Part shown: positions 24,952-58,574 of the stretch, piece after piece
How the letters are laid out: every line of letters starts with the position of its first letter
Numbering within the stretch: position 1 is the stretch's first letter
Source of the DNA: Desulfarculia bacterium
Lineage (GTDB): Bacteria; Desulfobacterota; Desulfarculia; G963662305
Assembly: GCA_963662305.1 (NCBI GenBank)
Contig: OY759352.1
Coordinates: forward strand, 2,013,620 to 2,077,619
Length of the DNA stretch: 64,000 nucleotides
Reading direction: 5' to 3'
Notes under the pieces: model-generated
Told to the model about the DNA's origin: nothing
The model's input: the letters and a program-made list of their open reading frames with translations, nothing else
The model's database searches: none
Made by a program: the position numbers and the translations under genes

Positions 24952-24962
24952 ATATTCCCCCC

Positions 24963-28685: not shown

Positions 28686-28687
28686 AA

Positions 28688-30762: not shown

Positions 30763-32805
30763 TTAGCTGTTCCTCCTGGCTATCTCCACCAGTTCCTGGG
30801 CTTTTAGATCCTCTATCTTGAAGTATTCGGCCCCCAGTTCCCGGGCCAGGCGGGCGGCCAGGCCCAGACGGACGATCCCCTGGGGCTCGGTATCCACCAC
30901 CACGAACTTGGCCCGTTCCTCCCGGCCCAGCCGCCCAGCCATGGCCAGGGCCTCCTGGAGGGGTTCCATCTCGGTCCCCAGGCCGGAGTTGGCCTTGCCG
31001 TCGGTGATGACGACGACGATGGGCCGGGCCTCGGGCTCCTTGCTCAAATGGTTGCTCAGCTGGCGGTGGGCCTCGGCCAGACCGGCCGAGACCGGGGTCC
31101 GGCCGCCGATGGGCAGCTCCTTGAGCAGCCGGGCGGCCAGGTCGATGGACGAGGTGGGCGGCAGGTTCACCTGGGCCTCGGTCTTGCGGAAGGTCACCAA
31201 ACAGACCTTGTCCCGCTTCTGGTAGGCGTCCAAAAGCAGGGACAGGATGGCCCCCTTGGTGGCGATCATCCGGGCCCGGACCCCCATGGACCCGGAGGCG
31301 TCCACCACGAACAGAAGAAAGCTGCCGATCCGCTTTTCCCGGACCTTGGTCCGGATGTCCTGGTCGTGGACGCAGACTTGCAGGCCTGATGAACCCTTGC
31401 GCCGGAGCTGGTAGGGGGCCGCGGCCCGGAGGGTGGCGTCCAGGGCCAGGTCGTTGTTCTCCCGGTTGAGATCGGCCTTGACGTAGCGGCCCTGTTTCTG
31501 GCTGGTCCGGGTGGGGGAGCGGCGGCCCGAGCCCCGGCGCAACCGGCGGTCCTTGGGCTGGCGCAGGGTCTTGACCTTAAAGGTCTGGCCCACCTCGAAG
31601 ATCTGCTCCTCCTCCCCGTCATCCGTGTCTTGGTCCTGGGGGGGCTCGGGCGGTTCGGGCAGGGGCAGGTCAAAGGGCTCGTCCAGGTCGTCGTTTTCCT
31701 GGTCCTCCTCCTGGTCCTGGTCGTCGGGCGGGGTCTCGGGCGGCTCCTCCGGTTCCTGGTCCTCCTGCTCCTCCGGCGGCGGAGGGGGCGGCGGGGGCGG
31801 AGGCAGGGGATCCCGGCGGCGGTGGAGCAGGGCCAGGGGGGCCACCCGGATGACCAGGTCCTCGCCGACCTCGGTCCGGCCCTCATAGGCGGCCAGGGCC
31901 CGGGCCGCCTCCCGGATGACCAGGTCGGCCCTGTGCCCGGCCACGTTGTTCTCCAGGCACAGCGAGGAGATGAACCCCTCCACCCGCCGCTCCAGTCTGA
32001 TTTTGGGCAGCAGCTCCCGGGCCCGGACCACGGCTTGGGCCAGCTTCTCCTCTTCCTGGGCGAATGAGGCGGCAAAGCCCTCCGGGTTGTGGTCGTATTT
32101 CTCCTTGCGTTCCATTAGCTCCACCCGGTCGCCCACCTCGGGCTCGCCCTTGACCTCCACGGCCAGGCCGAAGCGGTCCAGGAGCTGGGGCCGCAGCTCC
32201 CCCTCCTCCGGATTCATACTGCCCACCAGGATGATCCGGGCCGGGTGGCGGAAGGAGATCCCTTCCCGCTCGATCACGTTGACCCCCGAGGCGGCCGCGT
32301 CCAGGACGATGTCCACCAGATGGTCGTCCAGGAGGTTGACCTCGTCCACATAGACGAACCCCCGGTTGGCCCGGGCCAGCAGGCCCAGGGAGATGAGCCT
32401 TTGTCCGGTCCTGACCGCCCCGGTGAAGTCCAGCCCGCCCAGGACCATGTCCTCGGTGGCGTTGAGGGGCAGGTCCACCACCCGCACCGGTCGCCTCTCC
32501 CGTTCCCGGGGGTGGCCGTTGGAACGGCAGTCGGAGCAGAACAGCTCCGGGGCCTCCGGGTCGCAGCCGAAGCGGCAGCCCCGGACCACCTCTATCTCCG
32601 GCAGCAGCCCGGCCAGGGAGCGGACCGTGGTGGACTTGGCCGTGCCCTTCTCCCCCCGGATCAGAACCCCGCCCACACCAGGGTGGACGGCGTTCAAAAT
32701 CAGGGCCAGCTTCATCTCCTCCTGGCCCACAATGGCGCTGAAGGGAAAGGCCCGGTGCATGGACCGGATCGGGAACTGGATAGGTTGGGCTTGGGGTTGG
32801 CTCAT
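30763..32805 (-). CDS. Mg-chelatase subunit D-like protein (AAA+ N-domain, Pro/acidic linker, C-terminal vWA domain)
   Basis: Start at MSQPQAQ (ATG 32805); N-terminal ChlI-like AAA+ (IRGEKGTAKST), polyproline-acidic linker (PPPPPPPPPPEEQEDQE...), vWA MIDAS-like motif FVVDASGSM. Confidence 0.85.
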   Translation of the reverse strand: MSQPQAQPIQFPIRSMHRAFPFSAIVGQEEMKLALILNAVHPGVGGVLIRGEKGTAKSTTVRSLAGLLPEIEVVRGCRFGCDPEAPELFCSDCRSNGHPRERERRPVRVVDLPLNATEDMVLGGLDFTGAVRTGQRLISLGLLARANRGFVYVDEVNLLDDHLVDIVLDAAASGVNVIEREGISFRHPARIILVGSMNPEEGELRPQLLDRFGLAVEVKGEPEVGDRVELMERKEKYDHNPEGFAASFAQEEEKLAQAVVRARELLPKIRLERRVEGFISSLCLENNVAGHRADLVIREAARALAAYEGRTEVGEDLVIRVAPLALLHRRRDPLPPPPPPPPPPEEQEDQEPEEPPETPPDDQDQEEDQENDDLDEPFDLPLPEPPEPPQDQDTDDGEEEQIFEVGQTFKVKTLRQPKDRRLRRGSGRRSPTRTSQKQGRYVKADLNRENNDLALDATLRAAAPYQLRRKGSSGLQVCVHDQDIRTKVREKRIGSFLLFVVDASGSMGVRARMIATKGAILSLLLDAYQKRDKVCLVTFRKTEAQVNLPPTSSIDLAARLLKELPIGGRTPVSAGLAEAHRQLSNHLSKEPEARPIVVVITDGKANSGLGTEMEPLQEALAMAGRLGREERAKFVVVDTEPQGIVRLGLAARLARELGAEYFKIEDLKAQELVEIARRNS

Positions 32806-32807
32806 GC

Positions 32808-33542
32808 TCACAGACTCGCTTTCCGGACGCAACGCCCGGCCCAATAGAAAAAGACCAGACCGAAAAGAACCAGGACCAGCAGGGAAATCCACGGAAAGGG
32901 TCTGTCCAGGGCGGCGGCCCGGATGCACTGGCTGGCGTGGGTCAGGGGCAGGGCCTTGACCAGCCAGGCGGCCCACTGGGGCAGGCTTTCCAGGGAAAAA
33001 AAGGTGCCGCACAGAAAGGTCATGGGGGTGATGATGAAACTGTTGAGGCTGGACTGGTCGGCGTGGGACTTAACCTTCATGGCCCCCACCACCGAGGCCG
33101 CGGCGAATACGAAGGTGTTCAGCCCCAGGGAGAGCAGCAACAGGGGGCTGGGGTCGATCCGGACCCCGCCCAGCAGGGCCAGGAGGGCGATGATGGCCGC
33201 GCCCAACAATCCCCGGACCATGCCGGCCAGGACCTCCCCCAGGGTGATGGCCAAATGGTGGAGAGGCGCGGTCTGGAATTCCTCAAAGGTCATCCAGTAG
33301 AACCGGGCGATGTTGATGTCCATACCGATGGACCAGGCCTGGCTCATGGAGGTGAGGGACATGAGGCCGGGGATCATGAAGGTCAGGTAGTCCACCCCCT
33401 CCATGGTCACCGACCGGCCCAGCCCCCAGCCAAAGGCGATCAGGAACAGGGCCGGGCCGATGGCGTAGCTGATCAGGGTCTTGACCATCCGCCGTCTGAG
33501 GATGGCCATCTCCCGCCAGAAAACCGCGTAAACCGCCTTCAT
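32808..33542 (-). CDS. ABC-2 type transporter permease
   Basis: 244 aa, six predicted TM segments, ABC-2 family pattern; start overlaps upstream ATPase stop. Confidence 0.7.
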   Translation of the reverse strand: MKAVYAVFWREMAILRRRMVKTLISYAIGPALFLIAFGWGLGRSVTMEGVDYLTFMIPGLMSLTSMSQAWSIGMDINIARFYWMTFEEFQTAPLHHLAITLGEVLAGMVRGLLGAAIIALLALLGGVRIDPSPLLLLSLGLNTFVFAAASVVGAMKVKSHADQSSLNSFIITPMTFLCGTFFSLESLPQWAAWLVKALPLTHASQCIRAAALDRPFPWISLLVLVLFGLVFFYWAGRCVRKASL

Positions 33543-38981: not shown

Positions 38982-41090
38982 TCAGTAGTCGTAGCTTAAG
39001 CTCAGCCAGAAGGACCGGCCGGCCGAGGGGTAGCCGTTGAAGTCCTCGTACTGGTCGTCGCCCACGTTGCGGACCTCGAAATCAACGGTGGCGCCCCAGA
39101 GCTTGTAGGACAGGCCCACGTTGAACACGTTCTTGTCCTCGGCCGGGAGCAGGTTGGCCGTGTCGTAGTACATCCCCTTCTGGGCCTGGTACTCACCGTA
39201 GACCTTCAGGCCCTCCCACAGAAACTCCAGCCGGCAGAAGTATGACTGGTTGAACCGGCCGGGCAGTTCCTTGCCCTCAAAGGCTTTCACATCGCCGTGG
39301 TTGATGGCCTCCTGGAAGGTGGCGTTGCCGCTGAACCGGAAATACTCCAGGAAATCCACATTGAGCTGAAGCTCCACGCCCTGGATGTCGGCGTGGGCGA
39401 TGTTTTTGGAAGTGCCCACCCCGTAGGAGTCGTAGACCCGGATGATGATGTCGTCCACGTCGCTACGGAAATAGGCCGCCCGGGCGAAAAGACGGTCCAG
39501 GCAAAATACCTTGGGGGTCAGGCTGACCTCCAGCCCCACATCGAAGTTGATTCCGGACTCGGCCTCCAGATCCTTGTTGGCGGCCAGGAATCCGCGGTCG
39601 CCGAAGAGCTCGTAGAAGTTGGGCTCGCGGACGTACTGGGAAAAATTGGATTTAAGGGCCAGCCAGTCCAGGGCCTGAAATTTCAGCCCGATCTGGGGGT
39701 TGACGTACTGCTCCTGCCGCTTCCGGCCCTCCAAGACCGAACCCCAGGAGCTGACCGCGCTCTTGAGGTGGTCCTTAAGCCGGGTGTAGCGCAGGGCCGG
39801 GGTGATGGTCAGGCGCTCGTCCAGCAGGACCAGGCTGTCCTGAAGGGCCGCCGAAATGGAGGTCCGGTCGGAGGAGGGGGGGGTGTCCACCCCCAGCTTG
39901 TCCACGGGCAGATAATCCTCGTAGCGGATGTCGGCGCTGACCGCCGCAGTGTGGTAGCGGGTGGGCCATTCCACGAACAGGTTGGCCCCGTAGCGGTCGG
40001 TGTTGTAGATGTTGAGCTGCCTGCCCAGGCCGATGCCGTCGTGGCGGTCGTCGTACTCCTCCTCCTGCCACAGGTAATCCAGGCGCAGGGCCGCGTTGAG
40101 GTGGAGGCTGGTCAGGTTGTCCTTGCTCAGGCGCAGGGTGGAGATGTTGCGCTTGGTGGTCAGGGAGGCGTCGGTCTTGGTGGAGTTGTTCCAGGAGGAC
40201 AGGCCCTGATCCTTGTAAAAGAACTGGTTCATCCCGTCCAGGCGAAAGCCGCCTCCCAGGTCGTATCCGGCCTTGACCAGAACGTTGGCCTTGTCGTATT
40301 GGGCGTTGTTGCGGTCCTCGTAGCGGTCGTCGTCCTTGTTGAACTGGGTCCCGTTGTCGTTGAATATCTCAAAATCGTTGTCGCTGGCGGAATAGTCGGC
40401 GGAGATCAGATAATCGAACCGGCCCAGGTTGTGGTTAAGGTAGGCCGAGGCCTGGCGGGTGTTGAAGGAGCCGTAAGCTGCCGAGGCCGAGGCGTTGAGG
40501 CCCTCTTGGACCTTGAGGGTTTTGATGTTGACCACTCCGCCGATGGAGGCTTTGCTGAAATTGGCCGGGGTGGTCCCTCGGTATATCTCCAGGGATTCCA
40601 CGTCGCTCAAGGAGATGTTGCCCAGGTTGACCCCGCCCCCGGAACCGTCGTTGAGCAGGATGCCGTCCAGATAGATCATGACCTGGTCGCTGGAGGAACC
40701 CCGCAGAGACACGGTGGAGAACCCGCCCAGGCCGCCCTGCTGGCGGACCTGGACCCCGGCCTCCTTCTCGATCACGTCGGCCACGTTCTCCATCCGGCCC
40801 TGGAACTGGGACCGGTCGATGACCGTGAAGAAACCGGGCGAAACGGTCAGATCCACCTGTCCGGTCTCGATCTTTTCGGAGGTGACCTCCACCTCCTCCA
40901 GGACGGTCTCTTTTCCCTCGGACTCCTGTGAGACGTCTTCCTTGGAGCGGTCTTCCTCCGCTGTGATTTCAAGGGAATGGCCGCTTTCTCCGGCCCGGAC
41001 AGGACCGCCGGCACCCCCCCAGATCAGGAGGAATGAAAGGATAATGAACGGAATGCGCCGCCGAGATTTATCCAGAGTGGCCGTGATCAC
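38982..41090 (-). CDS. TonB-dependent outer-membrane receptor, BtuB-like (downstream of cobalamin riboswitch)
   Basis: GTG start at 41090 with AGGGGGAG upstream gives signal peptide VITATLDKSRRRIPFIILSFLLIWGGAGGPVRA; plug and barrel regions, C-terminal Y; the ORF-track ATG at 41153 lies inside the terminator palindrome. Confidence 0.85.
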   Translation of the reverse strand: MITATLDKSRRRIPFIILSFLLIWGGAGGPVRAGESGHSLEITAEEDRSKEDVSQESEGKETVLEEVEVTSEKIETGQVDLTVSPGFFTVIDRSQFQGRMENVADVIEKEAGVQVRQQGGLGGFSTVSLRGSSSDQVMIYLDGILLNDGSGGGVNLGNISLSDVESLEIYRGTTPANFSKASIGGVVNIKTLKVQEGLNASASAAYGSFNTRQASAYLNHNLGRFDYLISADYSASDNDFEIFNDNGTQFNKDDDRYEDRNNAQYDKANVLVKAGYDLGGGFRLDGMNQFFYKDQGLSSWNNSTKTDASLTTKRNISTLRLSKDNLTSLHLNAALRLDYLWQEEEYDDRHDGIGLGRQLNIYNTDRYGANLFVEWPTRYHTAAVSADIRYEDYLPVDKLGVDTPPSSDRTSISAALQDSLVLLDERLTITPALRYTRLKDHLKSAVSSWGSVLEGRKRQEQYVNPQIGLKFQALDWLALKSNFSQYVREPNFYELFGDRGFLAANKDLEAESGINFDVGLEVSLTPKVFCLDRLFARAAYFRSDVDDIIIRVYDSYGVGTSKNIAHADIQGVELQLNVDFLEYFRFSGNATFQEAINHGDVKAFEGKELPGRFNQSYFCRLEFLWEGLKVYGEYQAQKGMYYDTANLLPAEDKNVFNVGLSYKLWGATVDFEVRNVGDDQYEDFNGYPSAGRSFWLSLSYDY

Positions 41091-41134
41091 AGCTCCCCCT
41101 TTAATAGGCCGGCGGCCAGGGGCGGATCCGCTGG

Positions 41135-41174
41135 TAAAAAAAAGTCCCCCCATCCCTTAAGGGATGGGGGGACT
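41135..41174 (-). terminator. Intrinsic-terminator-like hairpin (perfect 32-nt palindrome followed by U8 on the minus strand); probable riboswitch expression platform
   Basis: 41143-41174 AGTCCCCCCATCCCTT/AAGGGATGGGGGGACT is a perfect palindrome; on the minus strand it is followed immediately by eight U; sits between the riboswitch aptamer and the receptor start codon. Confidence 0.55.
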
Positions 41175-41294
41175 GCACCCAGCTTACTTGGTCTCCCCAA
41201 AGGCGCTTTTAATTATCTAAACAGCGCCCGGCCTCGGTCCGGTCTTTCGCCGGCCTTGGTTATGAGCAGATGGCGGGTCTTCTGACTCCCGGAT

Positions 41295-41450
41295 CATCCT
41301 CCGGCCGCCCCTTCCCGCCGCCTTTTTTGACGGCAGTGGCTTATCGCGACCTTTGTCCCCGGTTACAGCGGCGGGACCGTGCCGGACTTGCACCGGCTTC
41401 CCCATTGAGCCTTACGGCACCGATCTACATTATGCCTCTACTAATAAAGG
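41295..41450 (-). promoter_or_regulatory. Cobalamin (AdoCbl) riboswitch aptamer
   Basis: Minus-strand RNA reads ...AAUGGGGAAGCCGGUGCAAGUCCGGCACGGUCCCGCCGCUGUAACCGGGGACAAAGGUCGCGAUAAGCCACUGCCGUCAAAAAAGGCGGCGGGAAGGGG..., matching the conserved cobalamin-riboswitch core (GGGAA..CCGGUG..AAGUCCGG..CCCGCC.CUGU...GCCACUG...GGGAAGG, i.e. the B12 box). Confidence 0.8.
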
Positions 41451-47304: not shown

Positions 47305-47848
47305 ATCACCACACCCCGCCGCTTACAGATAAATTTGAAGGAAGCAACGAGGGTGCCAGTTTACACGGCCCAAGAACAGGTGCGGCGATGTTGTCCTAAC
47401 TATGGGTTGTCATAGCTCATTATCAGTGGGCCTCTCTGAAATTTCCCTGCTCCCCGGAACCCGAGGGCCTCTCCCCCTCGGAGGATGGGGCTATATCTGT
47501 CAACGGGAGGTGACAGATTTGGGGGGAGGTGTCCACAAAATAGTTCCACTCCAGATCCGATCCTTCCCCGGCGATTGGAAATTGTTGCGAATTAACTAAT
47601 AAAAAAATGGGGTTAAGACACACCCTCGACTTGTTCAAATTGGCACAATCTTTGATTCACCAATCGATCAAGCAAAAGCGATGGTACTTAAGCGGGGATC
47701 AATGATTTCCGACAAGACCAAGGAAGGTGGGTGAGAAAGTTAATCCTATTATTGAAAGTTCGACTCGGCCTAATTATGGAGTTAAACCGTCCGCAAAATA
47801 AGCCCTCATTAATCAAAAGAACGAGGGGCAAAAAAGGAGTGGAAAATT

Positions 47849-48895
47849 ATGGCATCACCGAAAAAGGTTCGAGCTGCCGGATGGGAGGTAGCCCAGGAGT
47901 TGGAAATAAAAAAGCGAACCATTTTCGAGCGCCTTATCCCGGAATGGCGGCATGTACGGGCGGCCCTCGGCGGCATAGCCGTCTTTTTTATTGTGTTCCT
48001 GATCGGCATCTGGCTGGCTGGGAACCCATTTGAGGCAACCCAGCGTATTGCCTCAAAAGCCGTTGTCAACGCCGGTTTGGCCGGCACAAACGACTGGACC
48101 ATCTTCTGGGGCGTAATGTTTATGGCCATGTTCTTCGAGTTCATGGACGCTTCGGCCGGGATGGGGTTCGGCACCGCCCTGACGCCTCTTCTGCTGGTTG
48201 TTGGCTTTGATCCTAAACAGATCGTGCCGGTGGTTATGGTTCAGCAGGGAGTGGCCGGCCTGGTCGGAGCCTTCCTCCACCGGGAATTCGAAAACGTGGA
48301 GTGGAAATTTAAACCCATGTCCGAAACGGTCAAGCTGTGGATGATCATCGGACTGGTCGGTTGCCTGGCCGTGACGTTTTCCATTACCGCGGTCTATGCC
48401 TACCTTAAGGTGGCCAAGATCTGGATTAAACTGTATGTGGCCGTTCTGCTGCTGATGATGGGCGTCATCTCGCTGATTCAGGCCCGCAAGGAGCGTCCCT
48501 ACAGACCTTGGAAGATGCTCGGGTTCGCCGCCCTGGCCGGATTCAATAAAGGCGTGGGCGGCGGCGGTTACGGCCCCGTGGTCACCGTGGGCGGGCTGAT
48601 CTCCGGCGTACCCATCAAGAGCATGCTGGCCGTGACGGCCATCAGCGAGGGTACGGTCAGCACCTTTGCCATATTGGTCTGGCTGGCCCTGCTCACCTCG
48701 GGGGTAACCATAGACTACGTCTTGTTGCCCACGTTCATGCTGGCGACCATGTTCTCGGCTATTGCCGCGCCCTATGCCACCAGGGTTTTCCCCGAAAAAC
48801 TGTGGAAGGTGGTGGTTCCGGGCTACTGTGTGGTGGTGGCGGCCATCTGTTTCTACAAGATTGTCCCGGACGTTATTTCTAAGCTGGGCGGTTGA
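47849..48895 (+). CDS. TauE/SafE (DUF81) family membrane transporter (sulfite/anion exporter type)
   Basis: 348 aa; two-repeat polytopic membrane protein with Gly-rich TM segments; AAGGAG RBS upstream of ATG. Confidence 0.7.
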   Translation: MASPKKVRAAGWEVAQELEIKKRTIFERLIPEWRHVRAALGGIAVFFIVFLIGIWLAGNPFEATQRIASKAVVNAGLAGTNDWTIFWGVMFMAMFFEFMDASAGMGFGTALTPLLLVVGFDPKQIVPVVMVQQGVAGLVGAFLHREFENVEWKFKPMSETVKLWMIIGLVGCLAVTFSITAVYAYLKVAKIWIKLYVAVLLLMMGVISLIQARKERPYRPWKMLGFAALAGFNKGVGGGGYGPVVTVGGLISGVPIKSMLAVTAISEGTVSTFAILVWLALLTSGVTIDYVLLPTFMLATMFSAIAAPYATRVFPEKLWKVVVPGYCVVVAAICFYKIVPDVISKLGG

Positions 48896-49022
48896 TTCCT
48901 GGGAAGATTGGCAGGATAACCGCAAGTCGACAACCCCAACCGCAGGAAGGAGCAGGATGGGTCTAGTGTCGAAAGCGCTGCCGCTGGGCGAGGCGGCATG
49001 AGAAACGGTACAAGAGACGGCG

Positions 49023-49045
49023 CCCCGGACCTGATCGGTCCGGGG
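49023..49045 (+). terminator. Stem-loop (9-bp stem CCCCGGACC/GGTCCGGGG) downstream of the TauE-like gene; possible terminator
   Basis: Inverted repeat read directly; T-tract is not immediately adjacent, so assignment is weak. Confidence 0.3.
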
Positions 49046-49096
49046 TGTCCGGCTCCTTTTAAGATAAGGACGCCTTGACTCGAAACTGACAACGGG

Positions 49097-49645
49097 ATGG
49101 AAAAACGGAGGCTTGTTATGTGGAATCGGGGTACACCTTACCCGGCGTCCCGGGAGGAGAAGGCCCTGAACGGGTATATCAATCGGCGGGTCCGCGGATT
49201 CGGCCTGACCCTGATCGTCATGGGCCTGAGTTTCGGGTTGTACTACCTGGGCCTGTTCGGGGGAGTATCAGGCCCGCTGACCCCCGAAAATATAGGAGAT
49301 CTCCTGGTCGGCCTGGGGGTGACCAGGTTCCATCTGGCCATCGCCCTGTCAGGTGCGTTTGTCTGCGCCCTGACCTGGAACTGGGTTTTTAACCTGATCT
49401 GCCGGGCCGCGGGCCGCCGCCTGACCTGCGCCAAAACCCTGAATAAAAGCGGGAGAATCTGCGGCGCCGCGGTCAAGACCGTGAAACTTAAGGGCGAGAC
49501 ATCGGACCGGCCGGTCAGGCAGTACGTCTGCCAACAGGGGCATAAACTGAGCACGGCCCATTTCCACCCGCTGGAAAAGGGTGTGGTCGGCCACACCGTC
49601 TGGTTGGTTACGCTGGCTTTTTTCCTGATTTTCCTGGCGGTTTGA
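49097..49645 (+). CDS. Hypothetical membrane protein
   Basis: 182 aa; three hydrophobic segments, Cys-containing loop (CAKTLNKSGRICGAA...CQQGH); no family recognised. Confidence 0.4.
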   Translation: MEKRRLVMWNRGTPYPASREEKALNGYINRRVRGFGLTLIVMGLSFGLYYLGLFGGVSGPLTPENIGDLLVGLGVTRFHLAIALSGAFVCALTWNWVFNLICRAAGRRLTCAKTLNKSGRICGAAVKTVKLKGETSDRPVRQYVCQQGHKLSTAHFHPLEKGVVGHTVWLVTLAFFLIFLAV

Positions 49646-49764
49646 GGAGAGGCTGTTGAAACCGCCACAATAAACCGGCCGTGAGGCGGCGGAGGGATTT
49701 AGGATTTTTGAGTCGATAATGGGATCTGTTTTTGGAAAATCAACTATCCGCAAAAGGGGGCGGC

Positions 49765-50607
49765 ATGAGTTCCGAAATCCGGGTCCTGCTGGTCGATGAC
49801 GAGGAACGGTTCGTCACCAACATGGCCCGCCTTTTGGCCGCCCGCGGATTTAAGGTCTCCATTGCCGGAGACGGGGTGGAGGCCGTGGAACAATACCGTC
49901 TCTCCGGCGGGATGGATGTTGTGGTCATGGATGTCAACATGCCCCGTCTGGACGGCCTTCAGGCCCTGAAGCGGATAAGGGCCCAAGATCCCGAAGCCCA
50001 GGTCATAATCCTGACCGGGCACGGCAGCACCGAGGACGGCATCAAGGCCATCCGCCTGGGGGCCTTCGACTATCTGGCCAAGCCCTGTCCCCTGGAGGCG
50101 TTGGTCGACAAAATCCGTCAGGCCGATGAGGTTGAGCGGATCAGGGAAAAGCCGGTGCTCTGGACCGGCAACAAGGTCAAGGCCGTTCTTGACCCTGAAT
50201 TTCTGAGGCTGCCGCCGGAAAGCGGAGCGGCCCAGGGTCTGGCTTTGCTGGCCGAGGGAAAAGACCCGGATCCCGGCCCGGTCCTGTTCGTAACGGATGA
50301 CCGGAACGTTCCACTGGGTTGCCTCAACCGCCAGGACCTGCTCCGCGAAGCCTGGAAAAATCATCCGGGCCGGCAGATCACCTGGGACGAACTTTGCCGC
50401 TGTCCGGAGAACTTGCCCGAGACCAGGCTGGACAGAATTATGCAAAGGGATATCGTAACCGCCGATCCGGAAGAGGGGCTGCCGGAGGTGGCTCACGCCA
50501 TGATGGCCCACAATCTGAGCACAATACCTGTAGTCGAAGAGGGCCGGATGATCGGTCAAGTCCATCTTAAGGATATTCTTGCCTATATCGAGAGGCAGAC
50601 CGAATAG
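49765..50607 (+). CDS. Response regulator with receiver domain and C-terminal CBS pair
   Basis: Start at MSSEIRVLLVDDEE (ATG 49765, AAAGGGGG upstream); REC motifs (DVVVMDVNMP, ILTGHG, KPC); CBS segments at C-terminus. Confidence 0.75.
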   Translation: MSSEIRVLLVDDEERFVTNMARLLAARGFKVSIAGDGVEAVEQYRLSGGMDVVVMDVNMPRLDGLQALKRIRAQDPEAQVIILTGHGSTEDGIKAIRLGAFDYLAKPCPLEALVDKIRQADEVERIREKPVLWTGNKVKAVLDPEFLRLPPESGAAQGLALLAEGKDPDPGPVLFVTDDRNVPLGCLNRQDLLREAWKNHPGRQITWDELCRCPENLPETRLDRIMQRDIVTADPEEGLPEVAHAMMAHNLSTIPVVEEGRMIGQVHLKDILAYIERQTE

Positions 50608-50625
50608 GATCCGAGGTGTAACGCC

Positions 50626-52266
50626 ATGCCTGAAATCTCCGGTTCACCCTTGCTTCGCTGGAAAAACGACTACCCCTATTTCCGGCAGCTTCGCCGCCGC
50701 CTGATTCTGATCCTCGCGGCGGTGGTGGCCGTCCCCCTGCTGGTCCTGGCCGGAGCAGCCTTTTTCCACCAATACTCAACAATCAACAGCCGGGCCGAAC
50801 AGTCGCTCCAGAGGACGGCCGAGGAGCTTAAGGAGAAGATCGACCTTCACCTGAACGGACAATTGGCTCTCCTGAGGCTGACCGCTTCCTGCCTGGAACA
50901 ACCGGAACCGCTCCAGCCGGGCCGGATTAAGGCGGAACTCATCCGGTTGAGAGGCTCAGATCCGTTCCTCGGCCTGGCAGTCTATGATCAACAGGGCCGC
51001 CGTCTGGCCGGCTCAGGCTCCTCCAGAGAGTTTGAAGGGCCCGAGACCCTGCCCCGGCTTCCAACCGGCTTCCTCGGCGCCAGTTGCGGCTTTGGAGAGA
51101 CCACTGCCGATTCCGAGGGCTCGGCCCTTTACTACACCGCCTTCTGCCGCATCAGGGGAGAGGAGGGCCGTATCCTCCGGGCCGTTTTCGGGGTGGGCCC
51201 CATCCTGAAATTATTGTCCGGTCCTGATTCCGACCCGGCTGAAACATTCCTGGTGGGCCGCACCGGAGTCTTTCGGAACAGACCCAAGGCGTCCCCGTCT
51301 CCACCGGCCTCCAGCCCCCCTCCGGAACGAAGGTCGAGCGGCGCAGACGGTTACCTGGAGGCTTCAATACAACTGGATACCGCTCCTTGGCAGTGTCTGG
51401 TTCGGCGGCCCAGGGAATCGCTGAACCGGGAATTGAGCCGAATCCGGAACATGGGCCTGATTATCCTACTTCCGTTGCTGGTTCTGGCCGTGGCCGCCGC
51501 CATCCTGACCGTCAACTATCTGGTGGGCCGACTGGAGGCCGACCACCGCCTGATCAAGAACCTGGACCGGCAGCTCAAAAGGGCGGGCCGTCTGGCCAAC
51601 TCGGTCCATCTGTCCCACGGTCCGGTTCACGAACTGAAAAATACCCTGGTCAATATTGATACCACCGTAACCTGTCTGCAGGACGCTTTGGACCAGGCCG
51701 ACAGCCAACTGGGGGGCGAAGAGGCTTTTTTCCGGAAGATCCGGGAGGAACTGAACTACGGGCAGGTCATGGTCGAAAGACTTCACGGCAACATAAGAGT
51801 CTCGAACCTGGAATCCATTGTCAGCGAATTGGATCTGAACTCCCTGTTAAAAGATCTGGTCGAGCTCTTGGGCCTGGAACTCTACCTGAACAGGATCGTG
51901 GTGGAAACGTCCTTTCAGGACGGGCTGCCCTTGATTTTGGGCGACCCGGTTCAGATCCGTCAGGTTTTCATGAATATCCTGCTCAACGCGGTTTCGGCCG
52001 TGGATTCGGACGGTAGGATCACGATCCTTACCTCCGCCGAGAATGATGATATAGTGGTGACGGTCATTGATGACGGACCCGGCATACCGACCGGGCAAGA
52101 GGATCTGATTTTCGATCCCCTGTTCACGACCAGAAGGGGCAGCAGCGGAATGGGGCTGTCCATCTGCGTCAGCATCCTGGAAAAGATGGGCGGCCGGATC
52201 CAGGTCCGCAACGATCCCGAGCGGGGAGCATCTTTTACTGTCTGGCTGCCCCGCAGGATGAAATAG
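50626..52266 (+). CDS. Sensor histidine kinase
   Basis: Two TM segments flanking a periplasmic domain; HisKA H in HELKNTL; HATPase_c boxes (NILLNAVSA, DDGPGI, GMGLS). Confidence 0.8.
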   Translation: MPEISGSPLLRWKNDYPYFRQLRRRLILILAAVVAVPLLVLAGAAFFHQYSTINSRAEQSLQRTAEELKEKIDLHLNGQLALLRLTASCLEQPEPLQPGRIKAELIRLRGSDPFLGLAVYDQQGRRLAGSGSSREFEGPETLPRLPTGFLGASCGFGETTADSEGSALYYTAFCRIRGEEGRILRAVFGVGPILKLLSGPDSDPAETFLVGRTGVFRNRPKASPSPPASSPPPERRSSGADGYLEASIQLDTAPWQCLVRRPRESLNRELSRIRNMGLIILLPLLVLAVAAAILTVNYLVGRLEADHRLIKNLDRQLKRAGRLANSVHLSHGPVHELKNTLVNIDTTVTCLQDALDQADSQLGGEEAFFRKIREELNYGQVMVERLHGNIRVSNLESIVSELDLNSLLKDLVELLGLELYLNRIVVETSFQDGLPLILGDPVQIRQVFMNILLNAVSAVDSDGRITILTSAENDDIVVTVIDDGPGIPTGQEDLIFDPLFTTRRGSSGMGLSICVSILEKMGGRIQVRNDPERGASFTVWLPRRMK

Positions 52267-52299
52267 GGCACCCTGTGGGGGGATGCGGTCTGAATCCAG

Positions 52300-54639
52300 A
52301 TGTTGAAGCGGGAGCACATAAAGAGAGCCATCGACGCCATCTCGGCCCGTAATCGCCAAGTCGGCTACACCCTCAACGATATGCTGGGATCCGGAAGCAT
52401 CGACGTTCTGCCGGATTCCGACCCGGCCGCCTCACCCCGGGAGTTCGCTTTTCTGTTCAACCACGAGCCTGTTCATGTGCCTGTTTTCCGGTACTTTCAC
52501 GAGGGCACCACCCCCTTGGAGGAACGGCTCCTGGTCAAGTATGGGGAGTTGGTCAGGCGGCAGGAGTACCTGACCGGAAGCCAGCCCTACAACTTTCGCC
52601 GGGCCGCGGAGGATATTCACAAGGCCGGGCTCCGCTTTTTGGTCGAGTACGAGATCTCCCTCGCCGCGGAAAGGCTGGCCCGCAAGGGTCAGAAGAACGG
52701 TTTGCCGTATCGCGATTTGGCGGGGCGCCTTGAAAGTATCCTGGATCCGGGCTCCGCATCTCTGCTGCCCCAGACCGAAAATGATCCCGGAGTGCTTTTC
52801 CGCGGCGTAGTGGATAAGGACACCCCGGCCTATTTTCTTAACTTCCCCTTTTGCCTTGATTCCCTGCAGCAGGCGGCCGATCTTAATCTTGAATTCTTCG
52901 GTATCCGGTTTCTCTTGGATTGTCTGGTGAACGGTTTGGCCGAAACCGTCTTTTGCTGCCTGGTGAACCGGAAGATCGTGGGCCTGGTCCAGTCCGGACC
53001 CAAGACGAGTCTTTCCGGCCGCGACCTGGAGATCAAGTATATCGCCACCAGCCGGGGCAAGCGTACCCAAGCGGAGCTGCCGGCCCTTAAACCCCCCAAG
53101 GGCTGCGGCACGGTGCTGGTGGCCGGGGCCTGGATGCTGTGGAAAGGCCGGTTCGGCGGGAGAGGGGAATTGGTGCTGGATTCGGAGATAGGCTCCATCC
53201 GGTTCTACCAATCCATCGGTTTTCGGAAAAAGCAGGCTTACGGCTACACGCTCAAATCGCCCCAAGGCTACCTTCTGCGGAACATCCTGGCCATGACTGA
53301 ACACTTGCCTCAGGTGGAGGAGGGGGTGGTCCGCTCGGTCAAGGAGCTGATCAAAGGCCAGGTCAAGCTTTTGCGGAAAAAGCCGAAAGGCGGCAAGGAC
53401 CTCAAACAGCGCGAAACGGCCGTCGGGTTTATCCGGGACTGTCTGGCCACCGAACAGCACAGGGAACTGGGCCGGACCGCCATCGGGCTGCTGGCCCGAT
53501 ACCGGACCGAAATTCCCGAGGCCGACCAGTTGTTGGACCAGGCCATTGCCAGCGGTCTGGTCCAAATTCCGGTAAAGCTGAAAAAGGATTGGAACCCGGT
53601 CCTGACAGTCTTTGACGATCGCTACGCCCGCCATCTGGAGGGGATTTTTCATCTGGAGAGCGCCAAGCGGGCCAAGGCCATGCGGACCATCCTGGAGGAC
53701 GAGACCCTCACGGGCAGGTGGTCGGCTCTGGTTCCGCGCCTGGCCCGGGTGGAGGAGCTGGCCTATGTCCACACCGCCGAGCACATAGAGTTCATCGCTT
53801 CCACAGAGGGGCGGCCCCTGAGCTCCATAGACCTGGATACCCAGACCAGTGAGAGAACTTACGAGGTGGCCCGGTTGGCTGTGGGCGGGGTCTTTTGTCT
53901 GCTGGATGAGATCTGGTCCGGGGTCTCCCCCCGCGGATTCGCCTTTGTCAGGCCGCCGGGGCACCATGCCGAACCGAACAAGGCCATGGGTTACTGCATC
54001 TTCAACAACGCGGCCCTGGGAGCCAGGTACCTTCAGGAAAAACACGGTCTGGACAGAATCATGATCGTGGACATAGACGCCCATCACGGCAACGGCACCC
54101 AGTCGGCTTTTTACGAGACCGACCGGGTGCTGTATTTCTCCATGCACCAGTTTCCGTTCTATCCCGGCACGGGCGGTCTGGGCGAGTCCGGGTCCGGCCG
54201 GGGCGAGGGCTTCACCGTCAACGTGCCCCTGCCCACGGGAGAGACGGATGCCACCTTCGCCGATATCATCAACTATCTGGTCCGCCTCCTGGCCCGGCAA
54301 TATGGACCTGAGATAATTTTGGTCTCCTGCGGATTCGACCTCTATCACCACGACCCCAGCAGCCGGATGAGGGCCACCCCGGAAGGCTACGGCATGATGG
54401 CCAGCCTGTTGATAGAGATAGCCGAAGAGGTCTGCGGGGGACGGATTGCCTTTATTATGGAGGGCGGCTACAGCCTGACCGGCATCCGCGAGTGCGGTCT
54501 TCGGGTCATGAGGGAGCTGTGCGGTCTCAAGACTTTTGATCCCGCCAGGATGGAGAAGATGAAAAAACCGAACGGCCGCAGGATTCCGGCGCTCAATAAA
54601 ATCCTGGAGGTCCAAAAAGCCTATTGGACAATCCAGTAA
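52300..54639 (+). CDS. Fusion protein: N-terminal domain of unknown function (possibly GNAT-like) + C-terminal histone-deacetylase/acetoin-utilization (HDAC) family domain
   Basis: C-terminal HDAC hallmarks (PPGHHAE, CIFNNAA, DIDAHHGNGTQ, FYPGTGG); N-terminal ~400 aa contains GNAT-like strand SIRFYQSIGF. Confidence 0.7.
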   Translation: MLKREHIKRAIDAISARNRQVGYTLNDMLGSGSIDVLPDSDPAASPREFAFLFNHEPVHVPVFRYFHEGTTPLEERLLVKYGELVRRQEYLTGSQPYNFRRAAEDIHKAGLRFLVEYEISLAAERLARKGQKNGLPYRDLAGRLESILDPGSASLLPQTENDPGVLFRGVVDKDTPAYFLNFPFCLDSLQQAADLNLEFFGIRFLLDCLVNGLAETVFCCLVNRKIVGLVQSGPKTSLSGRDLEIKYIATSRGKRTQAELPALKPPKGCGTVLVAGAWMLWKGRFGGRGELVLDSEIGSIRFYQSIGFRKKQAYGYTLKSPQGYLLRNILAMTEHLPQVEEGVVRSVKELIKGQVKLLRKKPKGGKDLKQRETAVGFIRDCLATEQHRELGRTAIGLLARYRTEIPEADQLLDQAIASGLVQIPVKLKKDWNPVLTVFDDRYARHLEGIFHLESAKRAKAMRTILEDETLTGRWSALVPRLARVEELAYVHTAEHIEFIASTEGRPLSSIDLDTQTSERTYEVARLAVGGVFCLLDEIWSGVSPRGFAFVRPPGHHAEPNKAMGYCIFNNAALGARYLQEKHGLDRIMIVDIDAHHGNGTQSAFYETDRVLYFSMHQFPFYPGTGGLGESGSGRGEGFTVNVPLPTGETDATFADIINYLVRLLARQYGPEIILVSCGFDLYHHDPSSRMRATPEGYGMMASLLIEIAEEVCGGRIAFIMEGGYSLTGIRECGLRVMRELCGLKTFDPARMEKMKKPNGRRIPALNKILEVQKAYWTIQ

Positions 54640-55079
54640 CCAGGAAGTGTCAACCAGTTGTTGACAAAATCCGGTGGGCCGCCTCCGTCCATACCGGAAA
54701 AGCCTTTTGGACCTCGAAACAGGCCGGCCCCCGGCTTGTTGAACCGGGACCTTTTGCGGCCTCGGCATGGCCTCCTAAACCGGTCCATAAAGTCAACCCC
54801 TGTTAATCATAACCTTTTTCCGCTCAATGGACCATCCGTCAAACTAATCCGGGTTTCTGACCCAGAATGTTTTCAAGGATGGAAAACCATCCGGGATTAC
54901 CGAGTTGTGGAATCTGACGGTGGGGTGGACGGGCTGGCATGCTTGTTGAATTGTTATTTATCAAAGGGCTTCGAAGCCGAATCCGGGCAGAGCCGAAAGC
55001 GAGGTTCGGGGCTTACGGCCGACAGAACCAGGGAACAGACCCAGTAATCAACCCGGACATATATTGATCGGCGAGGGAC

Positions 55080-56864
55080 ATGGATACAAATCAGGACAGC
55101 CGGGATTACCGGGCCGACAACGAGTCGATGCCGGAGCGGCAGGCGAGCTACCGGCGCCTCTTCCGCAGGTTTATCTTGTACACCATGGTCTGCTCCGTGG
55201 TCCCCATCCTGCTGGTGGGGTGGGCCATCAAAATCAACTATACTAATTTTTCCATAGATCGCATGACCCGCAGTTTTATGTCTCAGATAGACCACCACCG
55301 CAAAGTCATCCAGATGTTCATCAACGAGTGCCGGTCCAAACTCCTTCTGATCGCCGCCACCCATAAGATGGAGGACCTGGTGGCCGGCGGCAAACTGGGG
55401 GAAGTGTTCGAGATGATCAACCGGGATCACATGTCGATCACCGATCTGGGGGTGATCGACGACCAGGGCAATCATCTCAATTATGTGGGCCCCTATGACC
55501 TGATCGACAGCAACTATTCCCAGGCCCTCTGGTTTAAGGAGGTCATGGCCGAGGGGATCTATATCAGCGATATGTTCATGGGATTCCGGCAGGAGCCTCA
55601 TTTTATAGTGGCCGTCACCAGAACCGAAGAGGGCCGGAAGTGGATTCTCAGGGCCACTATCGACACCGATTTCTTTCGCTCTCTGGTGGAGAATGTCAAA
55701 ATCGGTCGGACCGGTGAGGTCTATCTGGTCAACCGGGATGGTATTTTCCAGACCAGCCCCAGATTCAACGGCAAAATCATGGGCAAAGCCATATTCGAGG
55801 TACCGCCCAGGCAGCCCGGGGTGTCCATCCGGGTCGCTCCCGCCGTCGTCTCCGACGGAAACCAAAAGATTCCGTCCAAAATCGTCTGCCAAACCTGGCT
55901 GGACGAGCCCAATTGGATGCTCATGGTCCAGCAGGACTACAAGGAGGCCTTTGACGACGTCAACCACGCCAACAAGGCCGCCCTCATCTTCCTATACCTC
56001 TCGGCCGCGGCGATTCTGATCGTCACCATTCTTATCACCCGGCACATGATCGCCATTATCAGGCGACGCGATTTGGAGATGGACCAGTTGAACCGCCAGC
56101 TGCTCCAGGCCGGCAAAATGGCCTCCATCGGCGAATTGTCGGCCGGAGTGGCTCATGAGATTAACAACCCCCTGGCCATTGTCCTGACGGAGAGGCAGAT
56201 CCTGCTGGATGCCTTCCAGGGGAGGCTGGACGACGACGAATTGGAGGAGCAATTCCTGGACTCCATGAACCAGATCGATATCCAGGTTCAACGCTGCAAG
56301 AGGATCACCCACAATCTGCTCAGATTTGCCCGGAGGACCGAATCGGTCATCGAACCGGTGGACGTCAATGCGTTTCTCCAGGAGGTGGCCGAATTGATGG
56401 AACGGGAGGCCCGGGCCAACGGAATAGCATTTGTGACCGACCTGGACGAAGATATTCCTTTTATCAACTCAGACCCGTCCCAGCTTCAACAGGTTTTTCT
56501 AAATCTTATCACCAACGCCATAGATGCCCAGAACCAGAAGATGGACGGGATGATCAAGATAACCACCCGGGCCGAGCCCGGAGAAAAGGGCCTCTGGCTG
56601 ACTATCGCGGATACCGGCTCCGGGATCAGCCCCGAAAACCTGTCCAAAATTTTCGATCCGTTTTTTACCACCAAGCCGGTGGGCAAGGGGACCGGTCTGG
56701 GTCTGTCCATCTGCTACAGCATCATCAAGCGGCTGGGCGGGAAAATATCGGTAACCAGCGAGGTGGGCCAAGGCACTGAATTCGTAATATTTCTTCCCGA
56801 GGAGCTGCCTGAGGGCGCCTCCGGGGGCGTGGCCGAAGCCGAAACAGCGCACAATTTTCAGTAA
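55080..56864 (+). CDS. Sensor histidine kinase with extracytoplasmic Cache-like sensor domain
   Basis: H-box [15 protein letters not shown]; HATPase_c boxes ([23 protein letters not shown]). Confidence 0.85.
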
Positions 56865-56876
56865 TGGAGGGCAACC

Positions 56877-57347
56877 ATGAAATTAGCCAAAGTTCTCTTT
56901 GTGGACGATGAAACCAGATATGCCGAAAACATGGCCAAGCTTCTGGGCAACCGCGGCTATCGGGTGGTTACGGCCAACAGCGGCGACCAGGCTTTGCAGA
57001 GGCTGGAGGAGGAGGACTTCGACATCATTGTTCTGGATTTGAAAATGCCCGGACTGGACGGCATCGCCACCCTGAAAGAGATCAACGAACGAGAGCTGCT
57101 GACCGAGACCTTGATCCTGACCGGCCACGGTTCCATTGATACGGCTTTGGAGGCGACCAAGATAGGAGCTTTCGATTATCTGACCAAACCGTGCGAGGTT
57201 CAGGATCTGGTTGATAAAATCGAGGAAGCCTGGAATAAGAAGAGCGAGGTGGAACAGGCCGAGCGGAATGAAAAGATAAAGAAGATTATCGAATCCCCCT
57301 CGGCCGTCTTCTCCATGATGAAGAAACCGGGCTCCAAAAAAGAATAA
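56877..57347 (+). CDS. Single-domain response regulator (REC)
   Basis: KVLFVDDE, IIVLDLKMPGLDG, ILTGHG, KPC motifs; 156 aa. Confidence 0.85.
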   Translation: MKLAKVLFVDDETRYAENMAKLLGNRGYRVVTANSGDQALQRLEEEDFDIIVLDLKMPGLDGIATLKEINERELLTETLILTGHGSIDTALEATKIGAFDYLTKPCEVQDLVDKIEEAWNKKSEVEQAERNEKIKKIIESPSAVFSMMKKPGSKKE

Positions 57348-57671
57348 GGCTATCGGCCTCGGGCGGAAGTTCGGATGTCTTTCGGAAATCGGAGGGCTTC
57401 AACCGGTTCCGGGGAAAAAAGGACTCTCTGAGCCGGATCTCCGCCTTTATCTGTGGTGATGGCTCCAATTATGTTTTAACTCGGGTGCCGGAGGCGGCAC
57501 CCCGGCCTCATGTTTCGCTTTTTTAGAAAGGCCATTTGAGCGCTCGCTCTGAACCGGGCGCTCCGAAATGGGTTCGGCCCATAACTTGGGGCCGGGGTTT
57601 GGCACCCGGCCCCGGGTGCGGTTTCCAGGGGCGCAGGCCCTATCAGGCCCGCTCCCGTGGCTTTGCGGCGG

Positions 57672-58523
57672 CTAGACGCTCTTGCCTGCGCCGGCCTTGC
57701 CCTTGCGGACCAGAGCCCGCTCCGCTTGGGGCAGAGGCGGCGGCACGGGCGCTCCGGAGATCTGCTGCACCGCGGCGAAACGGGGCGGGCAGGCCTCGAA
57801 ACAGGTCCCGCACTTGATGCACCTGTCCTGGTCGATCACGTGGATCTGGTTCTTTCCTCCCTCGATGGCTTCCACCGGGCAGCGCCGGGCGCAGATGCCG
57901 CAGGCCTGACACTTCTCCGGGGCGATGTGATAGGAGGTCACCTCGCGAAACAGTTCCTCCATCTCCTCCAGGGTGAACAGGCCGTCATACTCGTCCTTGG
58001 AGGTGAGGCGGCGCTCCAGCTTCTCCCTTTTGGCGATCTTGATGTAGGGCACCAGCTTGATGACTTCCTTTATCTTCTCCTTCAACTCCCGGCGGTCCAG
58101 CCCCTCTTTTTGCCCCAGAGGACCCAGCTCCCTGACCTCCTTGGTGAAATCGTCCACCACCTCACTGAACAGGATGCCGTCCCCGGAGGACATGAAGGCG
58201 ATGCGCAACCGGTCCTGGTTCAGGCCCAGATGCTCCAGGATTCTTTTGGCCAAAAGGACCATGGTCAGGGCATGGTAGTTGCCGTGGGTCACGTAGTTGC
58301 ACTCGTTGAGCTTGCACCCGCCCACGAAAACCCCGTCCATTCCGTTCAGGAAAGCCCGGAGCACGAACTCCAGATCCACCCGGCCGGAACACATGACCCG
58401 GATGATCCTTATCTCACTGGTATACTGTAGTCTGGAAACTCCAGCCATATCGGCAGCGCCGTACGCTCACCAATGGCACAGAAAGCCCAGGATCCGGGGC
58501 TTGAAACTCTTTGCCGCGCTCAT
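57672..58523 (-). CDS. MvhD-like (methyl-viologen-reducing hydrogenase delta subunit) domain fused to 2x[4Fe-4S] ferredoxin; selenoprotein with in-frame UGA at 58467-58469
   Basis: ATG 58523 preceded by AAGGAGGTG; translation MSAAKSFKPRILGFLCHW-U-AYGAADMAGVSRLQY...: TGA sits where MvhD homologs have the second Cys of the CxWC motif; downstream CQACGICARRCP and CIKCGTCFEACP clusters. Confidence 0.75.
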
Positions 58524-58574
58524 ATGCCTTCACCTCCTTCCCCGAAAATCAGATCCCCCTTAGGGGGCGTTTTC

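Follow-up and report, generated by a model that had tools for sequence, protein, structure and literature searches.

BamF of Geobacter metallireducens (Gmet_2083), a subunit of the benzoyl-CoA reductase complex Bam[(BC)2DEFGHI]2, was described in a 2026 cryo-electron microscopy (cryo-EM) preprint as an MvhD-homologous adaptor with one [2Fe-2S] cluster, F1, that takes single electrons and passes them toward the bifurcating flavin adenine dinucleotide (FAD) of BamE; its selenocysteine (Sec) at residue 19 replaces the near-cluster Cys of the regulatory disulfide in methanogen MvhD, and a selenenylsulfide intermediate was proposed (bioRxiv 10.64898/2026.04.10.717634). Among the listed selenoprotein families of prokaryotes is MvhD/VhuD with its CxxU motif, in which Sec takes the second position of CxxC (PMC13188914). 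UGA-split genes are described in sulfate reducers as well, namely the Sec-MvhD paralogues mvhD1/2/3/5 of Desulfobacterium autotrophicum, which lie beside HdrA/HdrL genes (PMC2702500), and mvhD and BamE of the deltaproteobacterium Desulfococcus multivorans, where the list of five UGA genes includes BamE and omits BamF (PMC5109826). Sec-MvhD genes of sulfate reducers have long been known to adjoin HdrA-type genes that contain Sec as well (PMC2702500). We analyzed a stretch of 64,000 nucleotides (nt), hereafter the window, from a Desulfarculia bacterium (assembly GCA_963662305.1, contig OY759352.1, positions 2,013,620 to 2,077,619), with a bamF-like gene on the minus strand near its end. We conclude that this gene very probably encodes a Sec-decoded BamF-type protein, the MvhD-like adaptor of a class II benzoyl-CoA reductase encoded by bamBCDEF.

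With Geobacter BamF, the predicted protein shares an MvhD-like N-terminal domain with a [2Fe-2S] site (presumed here), Sec at residue 19, a gene position directly after bamE in a bamBCDE cluster, and a length more than 100 amino acids (aa) beyond that of plain MvhD. With MvhD/VhuD (5ODC chain D, PF02662) it shares the fold, the Cys pattern, the CxxU site and, presumably, an HdrA-type flavoprotein partner. In contrast, MvhD/VhuD proteins have about 140 aa and no ferredoxin domain, in archaea they connect HdrABC with a [NiFe] hydrogenase or a formate dehydrogenase, and their family entry lists two Sec (PMC13188914) versus one in the window protein. The D. autotrophicum and D. multivorans papers describe Hdr/Mvh loci and no BamF-ferredoxin fusion (PMC2702500, PMC5109826).

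The bamF frame comprises 284 codons, from ATG 58523-58521 to TAG 57674-57672 on the minus strand, and its sole internal stop is TGA 58469-58467 at codon 19. Translation starts at ATG 58523. The peptide around the TGA is MSAAKSFKPRILGFLCHW-TGA-AYGAADMAGVSRLQY, with the core FLCHW-U-AYGAADMAG; read with Sec, the stretch spanning the UGA is ILGFLCHW-U-AYGAADMAGVSR. Retranslation from ATG 58523 reproduced exactly the coordinates and peptide given in an earlier reading of the letters alone (the sequence-only reading). That reading had also remarked that the list of open reading frames holds only the part after the UGA, and the mechanical list does give the gene as 57672..58448 only, 258 aa from the ATG of Met26. 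TGA is the ordinary stop in 14 of the 29 Pfam-supported genes of the window, so the genetic code is standard and a reassigned code is excluded.

Readthrough of the UGA was examined in 80 related loci from as many species-level genomes (the majority from Desulfobacterota, some of them Chloroflexota and Bacillota metagenome-assembled genomes (MAGs)) that do not include the window species' own genome; the codon-level analysis and RNAalifold used 79 sequences. TGA stands at bamF codon 19 in 80/80 loci. The 18-codon N-terminus before it encodes a conserved peptide, M-S-x-G-x-K-F-K-P-[RK]-I-L-G-F-V-C-H-W, and varies freely at synonymous sites (Pro -10 as CCA/CCC/CCG/CCT, Leu -7 as TTA/CTG/TTG/CTT, Val -4 as GTA/GTC/GTG/GTT), which is the signature of translated sequence.

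A true stop at the UGA, with the protein starting at Met26 (ATG 58448) or Met44 and the upstream 18 codons being a leader peptide or non-coding, is very improbable. Gene callers do yield such products, including a public copy (P0001) that is 100% identical to the bamF protein and is called from Met44 with 240 aa; the downstream hairpin described below is also energetically weak, as a true stop would allow. However, the product would lose Rossmann strand 1 and two of five conserved Cys/Sec residues, and the Cys-type homologues run on through the UGA position. The bases 5' of ATG 58523-58521, AAGGAGGTG, contain GGAGG at 58537-58533, whereas no Shine-Dalgarno sequence precedes ATG 58448. Leu replaces Met26 in 41/79 species, which leaves no internal start that is conserved, and all 80 species retain the upstream peptide together with its synonymous variation. 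The sequence-only reading had named, as what would refute it, homologs that consistently start after this position and lack the CxWC motif, a test that would have misled. Indeed, 117 of the 120 closest database proteins begin at or after the Met26 equivalent ('MAGVSRLQY...' or later), yet the DNA of the 80 loci has the upstream peptide and the TGA. These late starts are gene-caller truncations at the same UGA, an artefact; the remaining three proteins, all Cys-type, possess the N-terminus.

That the TGA arose by sequencing error, or by an inactivating mutation (pseudogene) of a TGC or TGT Cys codon, has next to no likelihood. TGA is one substitution from either codon and Cys-type homologues exist, but the same TGA occurs in an independent metagenome contig (L001), 99.85% identical to window positions 47673-64000, as well as in all of the species-level loci. 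The remaining bamF frame is intact, the neighboring bamE has a second conserved TGA, and a hairpin-specific codon set accompanies TGA-bearing genes only.

This codon set lies within a nearly invariant GCTGGAGTTTCCAGACT that is found 24-41 nt downstream of the bamF UGA across the 80 loci. Codons +8 to +12 (A-G-V-S-R) are GCT GGA GTT TCC AGA in nearly all sequences, with an entropy of 0-0.33 bit versus 1.9-2.25 expected from the codons that these genes use for those amino acids, the lowest among the 124 codons examined. Six Cys-type genes use different codons for this peptide (GCC or TGT, GGG/GGA/GGC, GTT/GTG/GTA, TCC/TCT, CGT/CGC/CGG), and AGA is never used for the Arg of the hairpin region in these six. 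Only UGA-bearing genes show this freezing of synonymous sites over the GU-loop hairpin. RNAalifold found an invariant 4-bp stem, in which 97.4% of cells pair; in the window the stem has eight pairs and one bulged A (58447-58428), and the AGUUU loop places GU at nt 31-32 from the U of the UGA. Zhang and Gladyshev in 2005 reportedly described the bacterial selenocysteine insertion sequence (SECIS) as a stem-loop within the coding sequence, some tens of nt 3' of the UGA, with G or GU in a small apical loop. This describes the bamF hairpin, with its stem CUGG/CCAG and GU in the loop AGUUU. A SECIS prediction after 58467, proposed as a check by the sequence-only reading, yielded a candidate GU-loop hairpin for which synonymous invariance is strong and folding energy weak. 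The frozen hairpin fits a SECIS element.

Codons +19 to +27 (~58385-58412, minus strand) also vary little (ATC, AGG, CGC, GTC, TGT and TCC at 0.5-0.8 bit versus 1.0-2.25 expected). RNAalifold on -45..+120 nt found nothing past the 4-bp core and offers no structure that explains this second stretch.

When searched against Pfam with the UGA read as Cys, the protein matched FlpD (PF02662, methyl-viologen-reducing hydrogenase delta subunit) with residues 11-134 covering profile positions 1-123 of 123 (E 1.2e-46; 158 bits vs a cut-off of 22.3). The domain is complete over these residues, and the 18 codons upstream of the UGA are therefore needed. Among solved structures, its nearest relatives are the MvhD chains in Hdr complexes from methanogens: 5odc_D (E 3.6e-40), with 7bkb_F and 8rvu_F next. 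The MvhD alignment begins at residue 4-6 and pairs C16/U19 of bamF with C13/C16 of 5odc_D, so that in the sequence alignment the UGA falls on Cys16 of the CNWC motif; UGA 58469-58467 occupies the second Cys of the MvhD-fold C-x-x-C. An AlphaFold model of P0112, a Cys-type homologue 64% identical to the window protein, reached a predicted local distance difference test (pLDDT) score of 88.8 when built from a deeper Cys-type alignment (a first model, from a shallow alignment, was unusable at pLDDT 55.5). This model is the homologue's and not the window protein's; in it, residues 11-16 sit in the first strand of the Rossmann-like sheet. Foldseek with the P0112 model retrieved MvhD chains at E 6e-15 to 1e-13, with template modeling (TM) scores of 0.88-0.92 on the target. 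New Protein Data Bank (PDB) entries for the class II reductase (29QY and others) are not among the matches in the sequence or Foldseek PDB searches. The N-terminal domain presumably holds a [2Fe-2S] cluster at the conserved C16, U19, C45, C70 and C75. The Pfam, alignment and Foldseek results confirm the MvhD/FlpD identity proposed by the sequence-only reading, and the requisite MvhD alignment retains CxWC with the UGA on its second Cys, as that reading had it. Its further proposal of an MvhD-ferredoxin fusion is borne out by a Fer4 match and two CxxCxxCxxxCP motifs C-terminal to this domain, C205/208/211/215 and C235/238/241/245.

The genes around bamF indicate the enzyme to which it belongs. 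Contig L001 extends beyond the window end, where the window cuts bamC, and its genes encode BamB to BamF in order (Table 1). BamB of L001 matched 4z3w_A of Geobacter metallireducens with 1262 bits and 80.7% identity over 652 aa, and BamC matched 4z3w_E of the same organism (E 8e-87, 70% identity). Because both match the chains of the BamBC crystal structure over their full lengths, the cluster is identified, by homology, as bamBCDEF, encoding a benzoyl-CoA reductase of class II (ATP-independent, tungsten/selenium), and the gene studied as bamF. Searches with tblastn in the related loci found BamD in 60, BamC in 49 and BamB in 47, the others being cut by contig ends; bamB-bamC-bamD precede the pair of HdrA and MvhD-ferredoxin genes in every Sec-type locus with enough flank. 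The Sec-dependent Hdr/MvhD-type electron-transfer module of the sequence-only reading thus stands as an electron-transfer module, and is refined from a generic Hdr/Mvh system to the BamDEF bifurcation module of benzoyl-CoA reductase.

We regard it as improbable that the Sec-containing MvhD-ferredoxin protein serves a generic HdrA bifurcating module (e.g., in sulfate-reduction or beta-oxidation electron transfer) and that the Bam context is incidental. Two loci carry the pair of double-HdrA and MvhD-ferredoxin genes only, without bamBCD, one beside mycofactocin-type genes (L086) and one beside acyl-CoA dehydrogenase and thiolase genes (L087); the pair is therefore a module also used outside Bam clusters. 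D. autotrophicum likewise has several Sec-MvhD genes adjoining HdrA/HdrL (PMC2702500), and the 57 kb of the window that were examined yielded no further aromatic-catabolic genes. Against this, the pair follows bamB-bamC-bamD in this locus as in the flanked Sec-type loci, and the identity of its BamB to the crystallised Geobacter enzyme compares with 79% for D. multivorans BamB2, a predicted active subunit (PMC5109826).

Upstream of bamB, positions 1-1560 of L001 hold two transposase genes (Transposase_mut; DDE_Tnp_1/DUF772), about 800 bp before bamB. Together with the lack of other aromatic-catabolic genes nearby, this suggests that the bamBCDEF block may be mobile. In some species etfB/etfA-like genes follow the bamF-like gene (L056 7228-9039, L034 9667-11549; 12 loci by tblastn).

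The HdrA-type gene that the sequence-only reading placed with bamF is present upstream and has an in-frame UGA of its own. The context is NDCSM-U-ILSPK, the gene caller split bamE at this UGA into 71 + 935 aa, and the TGA is kept in 61/61 Sec-type loci containing the site. NCBIfam HdrA models scored below their cut-offs on this protein. The bamE hairpin has GU at nt 28-29 from the U of the UGA; in most loci its synonymous sites do not vary, and pairing survives the stem changes of L060, L063 and L079. It is much stronger than the bamF hairpin, and the gene offers a stronger parallel. In Methanococcus maripaludis HdrA a Cys-Sec197 pair between an Fe-S cluster and FAD matches C69-S-M-U72 of the window BamE (PMC13518236). 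In Geobacter the corresponding relay between FAD and cluster E3 is a Cys59-Cys62 disulfide, apparently in BamE (bioRxiv 10.64898/2026.04.10.717634). The window bamE ends 51 nt upstream of bamF, and the spacer contains a GC-rich hairpin, CCCCC-TAA-GGGGG, with a T-rich tail (58555-58567) that is terminator-like on both strands. This spacer hairpin could attenuate or stabilise the transcript, or be chance.

Beyond the MvhD domain, the P0112 model has five helices between residues 144 and 193. The solved sequences closest to the ferredoxin stretch are RnfB (9eri_B, E 9e-17) and the C-terminal 2x[4Fe-4S] domains found in bifurcating subunits of the HydB/NuoF type. HydB/NfnB/StnB-type chains fill Foldseek ranks 5-12 (E about 1e-4) with a root-mean-square deviation around 15 A, a single-domain similarity only. 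In HydB/BamH-type subunits the ferredoxin domain sits on the FMN/NADH-binding subunit, whereas here it is fused to MvhD; in BamH the C-terminal ferredoxin-like domain has been described as the acceptor site for external reduced ferredoxin. A NuoF-type motif was found within about 6 kb in none of 87 loci, and bamF is followed by a divergent response regulator and histidine kinase.

SelB with Sec-tRNA would bind the bamF hairpin and insert Sec19. For the window protein a mechanism can be proposed from its homology to methanogen MvhD and to the cryo-EM structure from Geobacter metallireducens. Sec19, beside the [2Fe-2S] cluster, could form a selenenylsulfide and help turn one-electron input into two-electron reduction of the bifurcating FAD of BamE. 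BamE, with its matching C69-x-x-U72 pair, would send the low-potential electron via BamC to the tungsten cofactor of BamB, the site of ring reduction, and the high-potential electron via BamD. The fused 2x[4Fe-4S] domain may wire electrons into the [2Fe-2S]/Sec site, their source tentatively being reduced ferredoxin or a BamGHI-type module encoded elsewhere.

A number of observations weigh against the assignment as Sec-decoded BamF. The bamF hairpin is short (4-8 bp) and energetically weak, at -6.8 kcal/mol folded alone (z -1.9); when 50 nt of context are folded, the structure of minimum energy is a different one. Folding z-scores of -0.03 (73 nt), -1.06 (50 nt) and -1.94 (25-nt core) show that energy alone fails to single it out. 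The covariation test counted zero compensatory substitutions, a negative outcome because the stem never varies, and Rfam gave no SECIS-type match and chance hits only, both for the whole window at the gathering threshold and for 57600-61800 at E up to 10. Since energy, covariation and Rfam give little, the SECIS case for bamF rests on synonymous-site invariance specific to UGA-bearing genes. No selA, selB, selC or selD was found in the window, where ARAGORN also called no tRNA-Sec. Geobacter BamF carries F1 only, followed by a second Rossmann-fold domain together with a winged helix-turn-helix that docks BamI (an 'HTH motif' in PMC1924859), whereas the window BamF continues with a linker and a 2x[4Fe-4S] domain; this C-terminal comparison draws on published description (bioRxiv 10.64898/2026.04.10.717634; PMC1924859), not on sequence alignment. 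The bamB gene lies outside the window and is known only from the 99.85% identical metagenome contig. Finally, no bamGHI genes occur in the 57 kb of the window beyond bamF. This does not mean that the genome has none, because in strain NaphS2 the bamB-F and bamG-I clusters lie apart (PMC2988823).

It is conceivable, though we consider it rather doubtful, that BamF fused to ferredoxin defines a simplified class II reductase, BamBCDEF, that works without NADH/ferredoxin confurcation by BamGHI. In such an enzyme the fused 2x[4Fe-4S] domain would take electrons directly from reduced ferredoxin and pass them to [2Fe-2S]/Sec19 and on to the FAD of BamE, Sec19 of BamF and Sec72 of BamE would form a paired selenol relay, and the difference between C-H-W-U-[AGV] and C-N-W-C-C would reflect tuning of that relay.

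When a Cys-type protein was used as query, the search gave over 100 full-length proteins (275-290 aa), all with C-N-W-C-C, that is, with an extra Cys right after the CNWC motif. The Sec-type motif is C-H-W-U-[A/G/V], with His in 77/79 sequences and the variants CDT-U and CHY-U. Both Cys-type operons examined in full, L082 and L088, have an uninterrupted bamE. L088 holds a full bamBCDEF cluster, all-Cys, that lies behind a PaaX-type regulator, and L082 has Cys in both BamE and BamF, its bamE reading NDCSMC. The switching of Sec/Cys status together in BamE and BamF possibly reflects co-adaptation around the selenol.

Table 1. Features of the bamF-like gene and its neighbors in the window, and gene order in contig L001.
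Feature	Position	Strand	Description
bamF-like coding sequence	57672..58523	minus	283 residues + stop, selenocysteine at residue 19; translation, Pfam FlpD + Fer4
In-frame UGA read as Sec19	58467..58469	minus	motif C16-H-W-U19; TGA in 80/80 related loci
Shine-Dalgarno GGAGG	58533..58537	minus	9 nt upstream of ATG 58523
Candidate SECIS hairpin of bamF, U-G-G-[CUGG]-AGUUU-[CCAG]-A-C-U-A	58428..58447	minus	core stem 58444-58441 with 58435-58432
MvhD/FlpD Rossmann-like domain, aa 11-134	58122..58493	minus	conserved C16, U19, C45, C70, C75; presumed [2Fe-2S] site
Helical linker, aa about 135-195	57939..58121	minus	no Pfam family matches
C-terminal 2x[4Fe-4S] ferredoxin domain, aa about 196-255	57759..57938	minus	Pfam Fer4
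bamE-like gene, double HdrA, 1041 aa	58575..61700	minus	in-frame UGA 61487-61485, Sec72 in NDC69-S-M-U72
Putative SECIS hairpin of bamE, GCUGGUCG-AGGU-CGGCCGGC	61451..61470	minus	-14.0 kcal/mol, z -4.2
bamD-like gene (HdrD/HdrBC-like)	61976..63127	minus	two CCG domains + 4Fe-4S dicluster
bamC-like gene	63456..64000	minus	cut by window end; bamB just beyond
L001 gene 1, BamB			AOR-family protein, 669 aa
L001 gene 2, BamC			Fe-S protein, 182 aa
L001 gene 3, BamD			CCG/dicluster protein, 383 aa
L001 gene 4, BamE			double-HdrA protein, 71 + 935 aa, split at UGA by gene caller
L001 gene 5, bamF-like			283 aa

The remaining 57 kb of the window contain corrinoid and cobalt-related genes, regulators and mobile-element genes. 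A cobalamin riboswitch (41255-41440, minus strand, 109.7 bits) precedes a TonB-dependent receptor gene (38985-41153). Positions 18146-41153 also encode ABC ATPases along with a periplasmic binding protein, another TonB receptor (23170-25122), a pair of very large CobN/Mg-chelatase proteins (18146-21886 and 24966-28943), ChlI/ChlD-like AAA-VWA proteins and a radical-SAM protein. Taken together, these features look like a large corrinoid or metal-chelatase uptake locus. Inside the coding region of a ChlD-like AAA/VWA protein (30766-33012), ARAGORN called a 97-nt 'tRNA-Arg (gcg)' at 32505-32601 on the minus strand; this is probably a false positive, and Rfam has no tRNA there at the gathering threshold. 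Toward the opposite end of the window, at 4055-10239, a mobile or defence island is suggested by genes for a 949-aa STAND NTPase that has HEAT repeats (4055-6901) and for a tyrosine recombinase/phage integrase (9049-10239).

The literature already covers this kind of selenoprotein, the position of its Sec and the role proposed for it. The new findings are modest: an unannotated family member, its systematic truncation across 80 species, and a ferredoxin-fused variant of BamF. NCBIfam has no Bam-specific models, and the bamF protein scores 133.6 bits against the VhuD 'exception' model NF045873, below the cut-off of 215; annotation pipelines are thus given no cue to decode past the UGA. As a result, bamF is missed when selenoproteomes are counted and metabolism is reconstructed for Desulfobacterota and for some Chloroflexota/Bacillota MAGs. 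Class II benzoyl-CoA reductase catalyzes one of the lowest-potential reductions in biology and is central to the anaerobic breakdown of aromatics and pollutants, and the structure papers of 2026 still debate what the Sec/Cys next to the MvhD [2Fe-2S] cluster does. Operons with CHWU and with CNWCC are a ready comparative set for the contribution of selenium, and the ferredoxin-fused BamF without adjacent bamGHI makes a testable question of how electrons enter the enzyme in sulfate reducers and syntrophs.

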